Source: a virus (taxonomy: Duplodnaviria; Heunggongvirae; Uroviricota; Caudoviricetes). From it: a DNA stretch of 10,407 nucleotides. The DNA lies in IMG/VR virus record IMGVR_UViG_2713896778_000036, one strand, 5' to 3'. Below are positions 3,142 through 8,876 of this stretch, one piece after another (positions within the stretch are counted from its first letter, which is position 1; every line of letters starts with the position of its first letter). The notes beneath the pieces were generated by a model, which saw nothing but the letters and a program-made list of their open reading frames with translations, ran no database searches and had not been told where the DNA came from. The position numbers and the translations under genes are program-made.

Positions 3142-3606
3142 ATGAGAAGAAAACGCGAAGAAATCGCATCGCCGGAAGCTACGCAACGTCTGCGCGCAAT
3201 CTGGGATGCAAAAAAAAGAGAGCTCAAACTGACTCAGGAGCTTGCTGCCGAGCTAATGGGTTTTGAGGCGCAATCTGCGGTTAGCCATTATCTCAACGGA
3301 AAGGCTCCACTTAATACTGATGCGGCATTAAAATTCGCTGTATTACTAAGAGTTAAGCCTGAAGAGTTGAGGCCTGATTTAGCTGATCTGATGAATTACG
3401 TCCGTTCCTCAGGAACTTATGACGAAAGTTTCGAAGGCGAAGGTTGGCGGATGGTTAACAAGCAACAAGCTGATTTACTAGATCTTTTTGATATCCTTCC
3501 CGAATCAGAAAAAGCAAAACTAATCGAAAGACTTAAAGGTCAGAATGAACTCTACAAAGAAGCATTTGAAAATATGCTGGCAGCTCAAAAACGCATGAAG
3601 AAATAG
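3142..3606 (+). CDS. racR: CI-like prophage repressor with N-terminal XRE/lambda-CI-type HTH and no S24 peptidase domain (RacR position)
   Basis: 154-aa ORF; LTQELAAELMGFEAQSAVSHYLNGKAPLNTDAALKFAVLLRVKPEELRPDLA resembles the lambda CI N-terminal domain; C-terminal half is predicted helical and charged. Sits between ydaS and ydaG exactly as racR does in K-12 Rac; symbol is positional, sequence identity to K-12 RacR not verified. No usable SD before the ATG. Confidence 0.65.
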   Translation: MRRKREEIASPEATQRLRAIWDAKKRELKLTQELAAELMGFEAQSAVSHYLNGKAPLNTDAALKFAVLLRVKPEELRPDLADLMNYVRSSGTYDESFEGEGWRMVNKQQADLLDLFDILPESEKAKLIERLKGQNELYKEAFENMLAAQKRMKK

Positions 3607-3627
3607 CTCCCACCATCTCGTAACTAA

Positions 3628-3651
3628 ACCGCCATTTTTGGCGGTTTTTTT
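3628..3651 (+). terminator. Rho-independent terminator downstream of racR
   Basis: Perfect 7-bp stem ACCGCCA (3628-3634) / TGGCGGT (3639-3645), 4-nt loop TTTT, followed by a T run to 3651; 22 nt after the racR stop. Confidence 0.65.
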
Positions 3652-3746
3652 GTCCCCTCCGCCCGCCCCCGCCTTACTTTTTATCAAAAAAACACTAAAA
3701 ATTTCATTAGGATAGTACATTTTTATCAACGAAATGCATATTTGTG

Positions 3747-3775
3747 TTGATCATTAATATGAACATAACTAATAT
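3747..3775 (+). promoter_or_regulatory. Candidate sigma70 promoter for the ydaG-ydaF early-left operon (PL analogue)
   Basis: TTGATC (3747-3752) - 17 nt - TAATAT (3770-3775), the same -35 and -10 hexamers as the predicted ydaS promoter; about 65 nt upstream of the ydaG ATG. Confidence 0.35.
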
Positions 3776-3841
3776 TATTACAGAAGCAGCACGGCGCTGT
3801 AGGTTTTAGTTCCGCCACCCGGCGTTAAAGGGAGAGATAAA

Positions 3842-3976
3842 ATGGTGCATTACGAAGTAGTTCAGTATTTGATGGATTGTTGCGGTATCACTTACAGCCA
3901 AGCTGTACAGGCTCTACGCAGCAACGACTGGGATCTCTGGCAGGCAGAAGCCGCTATATGCAGCAACAAGATGTGA
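3842..3976 (+). CDS. ydaG: Small protein YdaG (44 aa), unknown function
   Basis: ATG 3842 with GGGAGAG about 8 nt upstream; translation MVHYEVVQYLMDCCGITYSQAVQALRSNDWDLWQAEAAICSNKM matches my recollection of K-12 YdaG in length and sequence. Not in the ORF track (under 60 aa). Confidence 0.6.
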   Translation: MVHYEVVQYLMDCCGITYSQAVQALRSNDWDLWQAEAAICSNKM

Positions 3977-3986
3977 GATTCGCAAA

Positions 3987-4139
3987 ATGCAAAAAATCGA
4001 CCTCGGCAACAACGAATCCCTAGTGTGTGGCGTGTTCCCCAACCAGGATGGAACGTTCACCGCCATGACGTATACCAAAAGCAAAACATTTAAAACTGAA
4101 ACAGGCGCACGTCGCTGGCTTGCCAAAAATACCAGCTAA
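3987..4139 (+). CDS. ydaF: Small protein YdaF (about 50 aa), unknown function
   Basis: ATG 3987, 10 nt after the ydaG stop; translation MQKIDLGNNESLVCGVFPNQDGTFTAMTYTKSKTFKTETGARRWLAKNTS; matches my recollection of K-12 YdaF (51 aa) apart from the C-terminus. Not in the ORF track. Confidence 0.55.
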   Translation: MQKIDLGNNESLVCGVFPNQDGTFTAMTYTKSKTFKTETGARRWLAKNTS

Positions 4140-4337
4140 ACCATTTATTGGATTAATTCAATATTCTTGCTGTAGGGGTATAGCCGAGGCCACCAAAGCC
4201 CGGAGGTGGTGAAATAAAACCGGGCACAACACGAAGGCGCATTTCCGGTATCCATAAAGAGTCGGTCTTGTCTGTCAAATTTAAATGGTGGGAGTGCGCC
4301 TCCGGTTGTGAATAACAACACTGCTGTGTGTAGTCTT

Positions 4338-4384
4338 GGCGGCATCAGTTTTTTCTTGAAGTTCGACTGATGTCCGCCCTTTTT
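4338..4384 (+). terminator. Candidate intrinsic terminator or attenuator hairpin upstream of kilR
   Basis: GGCGGCATCAG (4338-4348) pairs with CTGATGTCCGCC (4367-4378) with a 1-nt bulge, 18-nt loop, followed by CTTTTT (4379-4384). The long loop makes this a weak call. Confidence 0.3.
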
Positions 4385-4563
4385 AAAGTGAATTTTGTGA
4401 TGCGGTGAATGCGGCTAAGCGCACGCGGAACAGTTAAAAAGCTATTGTCCTTCGTAGCAGAGTTATGGGTGAAATATCCGGCGTTAATTGTTAACTGGTT
4501 AACGTCACCTGGAGGCACCAGGCACCGCATCGACAAAATTCATTTGTAAAAATGGAGATAATT

Positions 4564-4785
4564 ATGATTGCTCATCACTTCGGAACTGATGAAATACCAC
4601 GTCAGTGTGTGACCCCTGGCGATTATGTTCTTCATGAAGGCCGGACATATATTGCCTCGGCAAACAATATTAAAAAGCGAAAACTTTATATTCGTAACCT
4701 GACCACAAAAACATGCATTACTGACCGCATGATTAAAGTCTTCCTCGGTCGTGATGGTTTACCTGTAAAGGCGGAGTCATGGTGA
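4564..4785 (+). CDS. kilR: KilR-like small protein (Rac prophage cell-division inhibitor family)
   Basis: 73-aa reading [73 protein letters not shown] from ATG 4564 with GGAG 6 nt upstream; length and sequence match my recollection of K-12 KilR. Track ORF starts 4 codons earlier (4552) without SD; no start codon further upstream, so the 91-aa RacC cannot be encoded here. Confidence 0.65.
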
Positions 4786-4955
4786 TGACTAAGAAAATAA
4801 AATGTGCTTATCACCTTTGCAATAAAGGAATTGAAGAAAGCAAAAGTATTAAAAGACCACTTCATTTCATGCGTGGAGTTATCCCAACGACGGAAATGAA
4901 AAAATATTGTAGTGAAAATTGTGCCGAAAAAGACCAGATGGCACACGAACTTTAA
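4785..4955 (+). CDS. ydaE: YdaE-like small Cys-rich (putative zinc-binding) protein
   Basis: ATG overlaps the kilR stop (TGATG). 56 aa: [56 protein letters not shown] with Cys at 7, 12, 42, 46. Same length and similar sequence to K-12 YdaE from memory. Not in the ORF track. Confidence 0.65.
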   Translation: MTKKIKCAYHLCNKGIEESKSIKRPLHFMRGVIPTTEMKKYCSENCAEKDQMAHEL

Positions 4956-5035
4956 CTAACTGACTATTCGAAACTGAATTTATGCCAGCAATGGCAGGTG
5001 GTCGCTCAACCTTAAAATAGTTATGAGGTTTATCA

Positions 5036-7621
5036 ATGAGTACTGATAAAGAAAATTACGCTCTGTATTGCGACGCGAAAAATGATAAAACCAGAAAACG
5101 CCTCGGCATCAAAGGCGGCTTTTTCTGGACAGAGGCAAAAAAACTTTCTGTTGCGGTTTCACGCTGCATTGCTGCAATGGACGATGCCGGATTTGACGAA
5201 GAGGATTTTAAAAAACCCATCCGCGTCCATTTACCCGTTGTGAATGACCTTCCACCGGAAGGTGTGTTTGATACTGAATTCTGCAACCGATACGAAAAAG
5301 GCGGAGAAGATGGTATCACAATGATACTTATCGCGCCCTCTGTTCCGGACAAACCAGCCAGTACTGACAATACCAACGTCAACGGCGAAGACATGGCTAA
5401 GATTGAGGAGAATATGCTTCTTCCGGTTTCAGGTCAGATTCTGCCTGTTCGCTGGCTGGCGCAACACAACAGCGAAAAACCGCTCACGCACGTTTCACTG
5501 GACAAACTGCGCGCATTACATAACGCACAGGATGAAAAACTTCCCGCCGTTACCGCGCTGGCCATCTCAAATAAAGCAGTGCAACTCGAACCGCTGGAGA
5601 TTCGGGATTTGTACAAACTGGTGCGAGACACTGACAAAGTTTTCCCCGCCCCCGTAAATTCGGACCTGGGACTGATGACCTCTTTTATCGAAGCATACCT
5701 GGGCGCTGACTACACCGATCGCGGTCTGCTTACAAAAGAGTGGATGAAAGGAAATCGTGTTTCACGCATCAGCCGCACGCCATCCGGCGCTAACGCTGGC
5801 GGCGGCATTCTTACCGATCGCGGCGAAGGTTTTGTCCACGATGATGCGTCAGTGGCGCGTGACGTAGCCACTGGCGTACTGGCCCGTTCAATGGACGTGG
5901 ATATTTATAACCTTCATCCCGCGCACGCTAAACGCATTGAGGAAATTATCGCTGAAAATAAACCGCCATTTTCTGTGTTTTTCAGCAAATTCATCACCAT
6001 GCCGGGCCACAAGGATTACTCCCGCGCCATCGTGGTTGCGTCCGTGAAAGAAGCACCAATTGGTATAGAGGCTACTCCCCACCGTGTCACCGAATACCTG
6101 AATAAGGTGCTGACTGAAACCGATCATGCCACCCCTGATCCGGAAATCGTGGATATTGCCTGTGGTCGCTCCTCTGCCCCGATGCCGCAGCGTGTAACAA
6201 AAGAAGGAAAACAGGATGATGAAGAAAAACTGCAACCATCTTGCGCAATGGCAGATGAACAGGCAACGGCTGAAACAGTGGAACCGGATGCAANNNNNNN
6301 NNNNNNNNNNNNNNNNNNNNNNNNNNNNNNNNNNNNNNNNNNNNNNNNNNTACTGGCTGCCTCTCGCGGAGAATTTGTTGAAGGGATTAGCGACCCGAAT
6401 GATCCGAAATGGGTTAAGGGAATTGAAACCCGAGATTCTGTGAACCAGAACCAGCCCGAATCGGAACAAAACAACCAGAAAGCGGAACAAAACAGCCCAA
6501 ATGCACAGAAAAACGAGCCAGAAACGAAACAATCTGAACCAGTAGCGCAACAGGAACCGGAAAAAGTCTGTGCCGCCTGCGGTCAGAGCGGTGGCGGCAA
6601 CTGCCCTGATTGTGGCGCGGTGATGGGCGACACCACGTATCAGGAAACCTTTAATGAAGAAAATCTGGATGAATCTCAGGAAAAAGATCCGGAGGAAATG
6701 GAAGGCCCTGAACATCCGCACAATGAGAATGCTGGCAGCGATCCGCATCGCGATTGCAGTGACGAAACTGGCGAAGTCGCAGATCCCGTAATCGCAGGAG
6801 ACATAGAGCCTGGTATTTATTACGGAATTTCGAATGAGAATTACCACGCTGGTCCCGGTGTCAGTAAGTCTCAGCTCGACGACATTGCTGATACTCCGGC
6901 TCTGTATTTGTGGCGTAAAAATGCCCCAGTGGACACCACAAAGACAAAAACGCTCGATTTAGGAGCCGCTTTCCACTGCCGTGTACTTGAACCGGAAGAA
7001 TTCAGTAACCGCTTTATCATAGCACCTGAATTTAATCGCCGTACAAACGCCGGAAAAGAAGAAGAGAAAGCGTTTCTGATGGAATGCGCAAGCACAGGAA
7101 AAACGGTTATCACTGCGGAAGAAGGCCGGAAAATTGAACTCATGTATCAAAGCGTTATGGCTTTGCCGCTGGGGCAATGGCTTGTTGAAAGCGCCGGACA
7201 CGCTGAATCATCAATTTACTGGGAAGATCCTGAAACAGGAATTTTGTGTCGGTGCCGTCCGGACAAAATTATCCCTGAATTTCACTGGATCATGGACGTG
7301 AAAACTACGGCGGATATTCAACGATTCAAAACCGCTTATTACGACTACCGCTATCACGTTCAGGATGCATTCTACAGTGACGGTTATGAAGCACAGTTTG
7401 GAGTGCAGCCAACTTTCGTTTTTCTGGTTGCCAGCACAACTATTGAATGCGGACGTTATCCGGTTGAGATTTTCATGATGGGCGAAGAAGCAAAACTGGC
7501 AGGCCAGCAGGAATATCACCGCAATCTGCGGACCCTGGCTGACTGCCTAAATACCGATGAATGGCCAGCTATTAAGACGTTATCACTGCCCCGCTGGGCT
7601 AAGGAGTATGCAAATGATTAA
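5036..7621 (+). CDS. recE: Exodeoxyribonuclease VIII (RecE), 5'-3' dsDNA exonuclease of the RecET recombination system; interrupted by an N run
   Basis: 861-codon ORF; GAGG 7 nt upstream of ATG. C-terminal PD-(D/E)XK-type nuclease region ([24 protein letters not shown]...[23 protein letters not shown]...) and central blocks ([33 protein letters not shown]) match RecE from memory. N-terminal ~100 aa differs from my recollection of K-12 RecE. Stop overlaps the recT start. Confidence 0.92.
6294..6350. other. Run of 57 N (assembly gap or masked bases) inside recE
   Basis: Directly visible: n at 6294-6350. Length is a multiple of 3 and the recE frame is identical on both sides (20 X codons in the translation). 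Confidence 1.
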
Positions 7622-8479: not shown

Positions 8480-8674
8480 ATGAGATATGACAATGTTAAA
8501 CCATGTCCATTTTGTGGTTGTCCATCAGTAACGGTGAAAGCCATTTCAGGATATTACCGAGCGAAGTGTAACGGATGCGAATCCCGAACCGGTTATGGTG
8601 GAAGTGAAAAAGAAGCACTCGAAAGATGGAATAAACGAACCACTGGAAATAATAATGGAGGTGTTCATGTATAA
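8480..8674 (+). CDS. ralR: RalR/Lar restriction-alleviation protein, reported as the DNase toxin of the RalR/RalA type I toxin-antitoxin pair
   Basis: 64-aa reading MRYDNVKPCPFCGCPSVTVKAISGYYRAKCNGCESRTGYGGSEKEALERWNKRTTGNNNGGVHV matches K-12 RalR from memory; two CxxC-type pairs (CPFCGC, CNGC). In-frame alternative starts at 8441 and 8468 lack SD. Confidence 0.8.
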   Translation: MRYDNVKPCPFCGCPSVTVKAISGYYRAKCNGCESRTGYGGSEKEALERWNKRTTGNNNGGVHV

Positions 8675-8876
8675 AATTACCGCCACTATTGAAAAGGAAG
8701 GTGGCACTCCTACTAACTGGACAAGATATTCAAAATCTAAACTAACGAAATCAGAATGCGAAAAAATGCTCTCAGGTAAAAAAGAAGCAGGCGTTTCCAG
8801 AGAGCAGAAAGTAAAACTGATAAATTTTAATTGCGAGAAACTTCAGTCCTCGAGAATTGCATTGTATTCAAATTAA
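8667..8876 (+). CDS. ydaC: YdaC-family small protein (DUF1187-like), unknown function
   Basis: 69-aa reading MYKITATIEKEGGTPTNWTRYSKSKLTKSECEKMLSGKKEAGVSREQKVKLINFNCEKLQSSRIALYSN; GGAGG (8657-8661) 5 nt upstream of ATG 8667; overlaps the ralR 3' end by 8 nt. Matches K-12 YdaC from memory. Confidence 0.7.
   Translation: MYKITATIEKEGGTPTNWTRYSKSKLTKSECEKMLSGKKEAGVSREQKVKLINFNCEKLQSSRIALYSN

Follow-up and report, generated by a model that had tools for sequence, protein, structure and literature searches.

What occupies the space between ydaF and kilR in a Rac-type prophage from which sieB is missing? The question is raised by positions 4140 to 4563 of a viral sequence of 10,407 nt (IMG/VR record IMGVR_UViG_2713896778_000036), the whole of which is referred to below as the window. 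A sequence-only reading had described these 424 bp as a stretch with no credible gene at the place where K-12 Rac carries sieB, and as the main unexplained part of the window. We hold with high confidence that the interval forms the untranslated leader of kilR in a Rac variant that lacks sieB, with all of its functional content on the plus strand. The interval is explained by features that were already known, the annotated and published Rac small RNA KilS and an RNA fold of a known type. The coordinates of all features are listed in Table 1.

The window is the early left arm of a Rac-type prophage. Over 3800-4900, it matches several E. coli O121:H19 chromosomes at 100% identity, and elsewhere the identity to strain RM8352 is 99.98-100%. 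Two differences from RM8352 were observed apart from this, an in-frame length difference of 84 bp within recE (57 bp at window 6294-6350 versus 141 bp in RM8352) and an IS3 insertion of RM8352 beyond 9211, which the window does not carry. The PGAP annotation of these identical O121 genomes leaves the space between ydaF and kilR empty. By tblastn with the K-12 proteins, KilR (98.6% identity), YdaE (73%), YdaF (96%) and YdaG (93%) were all recovered from the window. The RefSeq annotation of K-12 Rac gives the order recE-racC-ydaE-kilR-kilS-sieB-ydaF-ydaG-racR, in agreement with the earlier statement that sieB lies between ydaF and kilR and racC between ydaE and recE. Directly 3' of the HTH repressor-like gene, a strong terminator-like hairpin with a U-run is located on the plus strand (3626-3647), so that a separate promoter within 3650-3840 is probably required for ydaG, ydaF and the kilR leader. 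Farther downstream, the RalA antitoxin sRNA of the RalR/RalA type I toxin-antitoxin system was detected on the minus strand (8673-8851) as a full-length Rfam match of 225 bits (gathering score 170).

The nature of the interval was indicated by alignment with K-12. Window positions 4165-5015 align to K-12 1418625-1417778 with 91% identity, and 3806-4122 align to the K-12 ydaG-ydaF region with 94% identity. In a column-by-column pairwise alignment, 4165-4563 runs collinear with the 441 bp that separate kilR from sieB in K-12 Rac; 4165-4400 is 95.4% identical to K-12, and the two sequences are identical from 4540 through the kilR ATG (4564-4566). The earlier view that the 424 bp occupy the place of sieB was thus mistaken, because K-12 possesses the homologous 441-bp spacer besides sieB and the missing cassette maps to 4123-4164 only. 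The supposedly unexplained stretch is not a stand-in for sieB; it is a conserved 5' UTR of kilR, present in K-12 too. Between the two outcomes foreseen for a BLASTN comparison, a deletion scar or a conserved non-coding element, the second is supported by the conservation with the K-12 spacer, and the first is not.

Table 1. Features of the kilR leader and its surroundings (window coordinates)
Feature	Position	Strand	Basis or remark
HTH repressor-like gene	3142-3606	+	PGAP, RM8352
ydaG-like ORF	3842-3976	+	PGAP, RM8352
ydaF	3987-4139	+	PGAP, RM8352
Junction segment, 42 bp (last 17 nt of the ydaF allele plus 25 nt)	4123-4164		K-12 homology stops at 4122 and resumes at 4165
Two ORFs, 4145-4345 (ATG, 66 aa) and 4345-4536 (TTG, 63 aa)	4145-4536	-	judged non-coding
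Conserved spacer upstream of KilS	4165-4287	+	K-12 alignment
KilS orthologue, 97 nt (K-12 kilS b4833, 1418502-1418405)	4288-4384	+	alignment to K-12, RefSeq ncRNA
Conserved seed of the KilS family, UGCUGUGUGUAGU	4322-4334	+	13 nt
DicF-type intrinsic terminator	4338-4384	+	GGCGGCAUCAG (4338-4348) pairs with CUGAUGUCCGCC (4367-4378); U-tract 4380-4384
STnc100-class structured RNA domain in kilR 5' UTR, 135 nt	4398-4532	+	Rfam, fold, covariation
Helix P1	4398-4407 with 4523-4532	+	
Helix P2	4411-4415 with 4421-4426	+	
Helix P4	4480-4489 with 4497-4506	+	
Helix P5	4508-4512 with 4518-4522	+	
Pseudoknot	4431-4437 with 4491-4497	+	window CAGUUAA pairs with UUAACUG
Linker with kilR Shine-Dalgarno GGAG (4554-4557) before ATG at 4564	4533-4563	+	sequence
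kilR (FtsZ / cell-division inhibitor, gene served by the leader)	4564-4785	+	PGAP; 98.6% identical to K-12 KilR
ydaE	4785-4955	+	PGAP, RM8352
recE, then recT, ralR, rcbA and xisR	from 5036	+	PGAP, RM8352

The first of the two RNA elements is KilS. Within the kilR-sieB spacer of K-12, RefSeq annotates the ncRNA gene kilS (b4833, 1418405-1418502, minus strand), and its orthologue in the window differs by five substitutions and one indel, a 1-nt change in the U-run of the loop (about 94% identity over 97-98 nt). By synteny and alignment, it belongs to the 5' UTR of kilR, has the same orientation as this gene and lies between kilR and the ydaF/sieB side. In K-12, KilS was predicted from RIL-seq as an sRNA of the kilR 5' UTR and verified by northern analysis, with yncL as a partner (Bar et al. 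2021, PMC8175672). The K-12 RNA was Hfq-associated in RIL-seq with three interactions, and its transcription start site and RNase E site were given in the supplement as 1418502 and 1418471, respectively (PMC8175672). The start site corresponds to window 4288 and the RNase E site to about window 4319, 31 nt into KilS.

The KilS segment folds with z=-3.46, and its MFE structure consists of a 5' stem structure and the terminator hairpin (4338-4378), followed by UUUUU. The seed is partly paired inside the 5' stem structure in this fold; it is nevertheless taken as accessible, in view of its conservation and of the K-12 RNase E site immediately 5' of the box. The conserved spacer upstream of KilS presumably holds the KilS promoter. 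Relative to shuffles, no marked fold of this spacer was predicted for either strand (z=+0.98 and +0.58), and no sigma-70 consensus promoter was found by scanning upstream of 4288, so that it is the start-site data of K-12 that argue for a promoter belonging to KilS itself. The segment 4164-4214 is similar to a 5' module that KilS-family RNAs carry in other phage contigs (79% identity to L225 and L230 over 52 nt, E=0.003).

As to targets, the seed shows a 10-bp complementarity, including one G-U pair, to the yncL 5' UTR at -37 to -28 (p about 0.03-0.06 versus shuffles). No complementarity of the seed to the ftsZ start region beyond that of shuffles was detected (p=0.68-0.91). An action of KilS on ftsZ in the manner of DicF was not supported, the seed complementarity being at chance level and the unconstrained duplexes long and uninformative; between the KilS loop and the translation-initiation region of ftsZ, about 8 bp including two G-U pairs were noticed, by eye only. 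A separate observation concerns RprA. The 16-mer UGCUGUGUGUAGUCUU, which lies directly 5' of the KilS terminator (4322-4337, plus strand), is the same as the stretch directly 5' of the RprA terminator, and the Rfam RprA match in the window has a score of 24.6 bits (E=2.2). The RprA seed described for hdeD is located at about nt 31, elsewhere in RprA than the shared 16-mer (PMC5861431). The sharing may reflect a common origin, a common Hfq or RNase E signal, or chance.

KilS is related to DicF of the Qin prophage. The Rfam DicF model (RF00039) matches the window at 4325-4379 with 42.8 bits (E=6e-8), below its gathering score of 48 bits; the corresponding scores are 39.1 bits for K-12 KilS and 76.7 bits for true DicF. 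Both K-12 Rac and K-12 Qin give the same pair of Rfam matches, DicF and STnc100, and in the alignment kilS-kilR is homologous to Qin dicF-dicB over a stretch that begins at the terminator stem and extends to the Shine-Dalgarno region of the gene that follows. A module of terminator plus leader upstream of a prophage division inhibitor is found also in Qin, Tritos and mEp460-type phages. The 5' seed of DicF, UUUCUGGUGACGU, does not occur in the window and is replaced by UGCUGUGUGUAGU. By these comparisons, KilS is a DicF paralogue that has a different seed and falls outside the DicF family.

The KilS seed together with the start of the terminator stem was found by a pattern scan at no fewer than 120 viral-contig loci, with 86 distinct sequences among the matches listed. 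The seed was fixed by the search pattern in this set of 86; its invariance was shown by a separate phage comparison, in which the 13-nt seed was invariant across different phages while the flanks differed. The 5' modules of the family vary; among them are a Rac-type hairpin, the 3' end of a tRNA and an STnc100-type domain that directly precedes the element. Terminator stems also vary between contigs, for example GGCGGCAUCAG/CUGAUGUCCGCC versus GGCGGUACCAG/CUGGUACCGCC, the pairing being apparently kept as judged by eye and uncounted, and a DicF-type loop is present in some members (L204 and L231). The KilS element precedes a kilR-like gene in the N-type Stx1c phage phiSTEC1589 and an unrelated gene in phage GER2 (L127), where neither kilR nor an STnc100 domain is located downstream. 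In a Shigella flexneri Rac-like prophage (L030, 3017-3424), KilS and an STnc100-type leader are followed not by kilR but by isrK (Rfam, 61.5 bits) and a C4 antisense RNA (75.7 bits), an arrangement indicating that the leader module has been joined to different downstream modules.

The second RNA element is a structured domain of the STnc100 class. The Rfam model STnc100 (RF02076) matches at 4381-4571 with 40.8 bits (E=2.3e-7), below the gathering score of 47 bits, while canonical copies score 50-90 bits. The lower score is attributable mainly to the covarying helix P2, which is GCGG/CGC instead of CCCC/GGG. The window domain folds with z=-3.43, and the helices of the family are reproduced by its MFE structure. 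Homologues were collected from one genome per species with the pattern CACCNGGAGGCACCNGGCAC, for which 120 loci were returned, most of them in Enterobacterales with GGUGAAU located 70-125 nt upstream. From 87 non-redundant domains including that of the window, an alignment was made and analyzed by RNAalifold and pair counting. Helices P1, P2, P3 and P5 were supported. Of the cells, 97.7% were paired, compared with 86.6% after shuffling and 37-50% in slid controls, and compensatory cells numbered 163 versus 43, a level reached in none of 500 shuffles; P5, being fixed by the search pattern, carries no independent weight in this count. A pseudoknot between the segment following P2 and the loop of the P4 hairpin was also supported (self pairs 6.33 versus cross pairs 4.88, p=8e-24), and this element is an addition of the present analysis to the Rfam STnc100 structure. 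The covariance analysis that the earlier reading had proposed thus revealed a structured RNA on the plus strand, with helices covarying across 87 homologues from many genera of Enterobacterales. The suggestion of a regulatory RNA in that reading was right as to the kind of element, but both RNAs are on the plus strand, opposite to the ORFs named there, and belong to types already described, KilS and the STnc100 class.

The surroundings of this domain differ among its copies. Of 103 copies, about 31% have a terminator 8-46 nt downstream, and about 25% have a Shine-Dalgarno sequence and an ORF within 150 nt, among which a cluster at 33 nt represents the Rac/Qin type; in the window, the domain ends 32 nt before the kilR ATG. 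Tandem arrays of four copies, about 330-570 nt apart, were observed in other Enterobacterales (L053, 894-2010; L077, 110-1688), and in further loci the domains are interleaved with prophage tRNA genes for tRNA-Met and tRNA-Thr (L099, 3717-5512; L113, 4776-5127). These arrays and the tRNA interleaving suggest that the fold is able to function on its own or as a processed RNA. The core of the domain (window 4401-4529) is present also in the P1-like phages P7 and D6; the P7 copy (L124, 2501-2616) is part of the ban operon, with tRNA genes on one side and a terB-like gene on the other. The literature on STnc100 gives no function, and PasD, a reported relative of STnc100, was described as a base-pairing sRNA. 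A put-like antiterminator role was also considered for the domain and ruled out, because the HK022 genome contains neither an STnc100-like sequence by pattern nor an Rfam match.

A working scheme for the leader can be proposed from these elements. Transcription would start at about 4288, the site mapped in K-12, or arrive from upstream via ydaG-ydaF. Most transcripts would stop at the terminator, giving rise to Hfq-bound KilS, which would then be trimmed by RNase E, probably to a product of about 66 nt whose 5' end carries the seed, as judged from the K-12 site near 4319. KilS would act in trans through this seed on mRNAs such as yncL. The terminator would at the same time serve as an attenuator, by which the toxic kilR is kept silent, and only read-through transcripts would carry the structured leader and kilR. 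In K-12, kilR is toxic and its silencing depends on Rho/NusG (PMC5793797), which may limit the read-through further. The STnc100-type domain would most likely affect kilR mRNA in cis, through its stability, its processing or its translation, which is a guess.

The strongest competitor of this scheme concerns the last step. The STnc100-type domain could be an independent RNA, either processed or acting as a trans sRNA or a protein decoy, and not a cis part of kilR mRNA. Rfam classes STnc100 as an sRNA, and PasD, its reported relative, is described as base-pairing; the four-copy arrays, the position beside tRNA genes and the nearly one-third of copies that precede a terminator also speak for independence. 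In Rac and Qin, however, the end of the domain and the ATG of the division inhibitor are separated by 32-33 nt that contain no terminator, and this spacing is conserved between kilR and dicB even though the two proteins are unrelated. We therefore regard an independent RNA as rather doubtful for the Rac/Qin type, while giving it more weight than any other competing explanation. Two further proposals are made tentatively, at somewhat lower confidence still. In one, the STnc100-type domain is a cis-acting RNA of an undefined class; in the other, which is separate from it, the KilS family is a widespread modular prophage sRNA within the host Hfq network. In the first case, the domain could serve in processing or stability, act as a gate on translation, or bind a protein or ligand so as to time the expression of a toxic gene. 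The connection of the KilS family with the Hfq network is drawn from the 16-nt box identical to that of host RprA and from the occurrence of the family in at least 120 phage contigs.

KilS itself could be only the by-product of a transcriptional attenuator, so that the interval would be a purely cis-acting kilR leader with no trans function. The dependence of kilR silencing on Rho/NusG in K-12 (PMC5793797), the small number of RIL-seq partners of KilS and the weak match between the seed and yncL are all compatible with this explanation. It was considered unlikely, because the 13-nt seed stays invariant while the 5' modules, the terminator stems and the downstream genes differ between phages, which argues for selection on a trans-pairing sequence. 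In addition, the GER2 element has no kilR or STnc100 domain downstream, and KilS is associated with Hfq in RIL-seq.

Far less probable is the coding of small proteins. The two minus-strand ORFs of Table 1 exist as they had been described, each without a Shine-Dalgarno motif in the 20 nt upstream of its start, and two further short ORFs are present, 4409-4549 on the plus strand (46 aa) and 4153-4278 on the minus strand (41 aa). No Pfam match was obtained for any of these four ORFs, nor any PHROG match for the three on the minus strand, which overlap the RNA elements of the opposite strand. The frame of 4345-4536 is broken in K-12 by a 4-nt indel, while that of 4145-4345 is open in K-12 too, with 5 of the 8 substitutions synonymous by hand count. 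The plus-strand 46-aa ORF matches phrog_24763, a family of unknown function (E=5.8e-12). The ATG of this ORF, however, arises from the Rac-type P2 (AAU-GCG) and is missing from canonical family members (AAU-CCC). The PHROG match covers the conserved P4-P5-P1 RNA, and the substitutions across the stretch follow the covariation of RNA helices, not codon conservation. The 46-aa ORF is therefore regarded as spurious, and phrog_24763 is probably a family of ORFs miscalled over a conserved RNA. PGAP never calls a gene here. The earlier statement that the interval lacks a credible protein gene holds, and the proposal of chance ORFs was right, in view of the missing Pfam and PHROG matches of the minus-strand frames and of the frame broken in K-12.

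The absence of sieB itself was confirmed. By tblastn with K-12 SieB, the best match in the window (E=0.58) was outside 4140-4563, and no SieB-like ORF of about 160 aa was found. The K-12 counterpart of the 42-bp junction is a sieB cassette of 551 bp (L002, 7627-8177), which consists of sieB, the 46 nt upstream of sieB and the overlapping ydaF end. Blastn with this cassette matched only the 24 nt of its upstream flank (4165-4188), and a degraded sieB, one of the options in the sequence-only reading, is therefore without protein or DNA trace. The sieB-less junction was found in 280 of 5426 complete E. coli genomes at a threshold of at least 80% of the query covered, and the 424-bp leader was covered to at least 80% in 1755 genomes. 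The sieB cassette is therefore a presence/absence polymorphism, the lineage of the window being one without the 551-bp cassette and not one in which the gene decayed in place. That the interval is a decayed sieB or the scar of its deletion, as the position of sieB between kilR and ydaF in K-12 and the similarity in length (424 bp against 489 bp for sieB) might suggest, has a negligible chance of being correct, because SieB gives only chance matches and none within the interval, the cassette matches at its flank only, and all of 4165-4563 aligns to the K-12 spacer beside sieB, leaving just the 42 bp unmatched.

The window also lacks racC, in agreement with the earlier remark that racC does not fit here. 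The best tblastn match of K-12 RacC in the whole window (E=0.10) was at an unrelated place, and ydaE and recE are separated by 80 bp (4956-5035) versus a racC-containing gap of 478 bp in K-12. This absence looks like another difference of the cassette type. A degraded racC as the content of the interval was ruled out, since tblastn and blastn with the K-12 sequences yielded nothing.

For the window itself, these results carry little weight, the absence of sieB being an ordinary cassette polymorphism. In a wider sense, annotation pipelines leave the leader blank because both RNA elements score just under the Rfam gathering thresholds, and the same explanation should thus apply to the "empty" stretches upstream of kil/dicB in thousands of E. 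coli prophages. In E. coli O157:H7, kilR and the region upstream of it have been singled out as predicting a severe outcome (PMC12711010); it is therefore useful for the reading of such variants that the leader holds a small RNA, a terminator and a folded domain.

The leader can finally be compared with known systems. The K-12 Rac sieB cassette belongs to the same neighbourhood, between ydaF and the kilR leader, and differs by its absence from the window, where 551 bp are reduced to 42 bp with no remnant. The put antiterminator RNA of HK022 is likewise a folded RNA in an early lambdoid operon, whereas the domain of the window is located after, not before, the nearest terminator. With STnc100 and PasD, prophage-borne RNAs of Enterobacterales, the domain shares helices P1, P2, P4 and P5, the pseudoknot and the junction motifs GGUGAAU and CACCNGGAGGCACCNGGCACC. 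In contrast to these RNAs, the Rac/Qin subtype has the altered P2 and a longer variable arm, which bring it below the gathering threshold, and the window copy is a 5' UTR directly before a gene, not an element before a terminator. DicF of Qin resembles KilS in its homologous terminator hairpin, U-tract and downstream leader and in its place in the operon, just upstream of a division inhibitor (dicB versus kilR). The two RNAs are also alike in processing, in that K-12 KilS has its internal RNase E site and the 5' end of DicF is made by RNase E. KilS differs from DicF in its sub-threshold Rfam score, its seed, its loop, about 35 extra nucleotides at the 5' end and the lack of convincing complementarity to ftsZ. 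The closest relative is K-12 KilS, which shares the site between ydaF/sieB and kilR, the strand, the seed and the terminator; in the window, the neighbour is ydaF instead of sieB, and KilS is here read from sequence alone.
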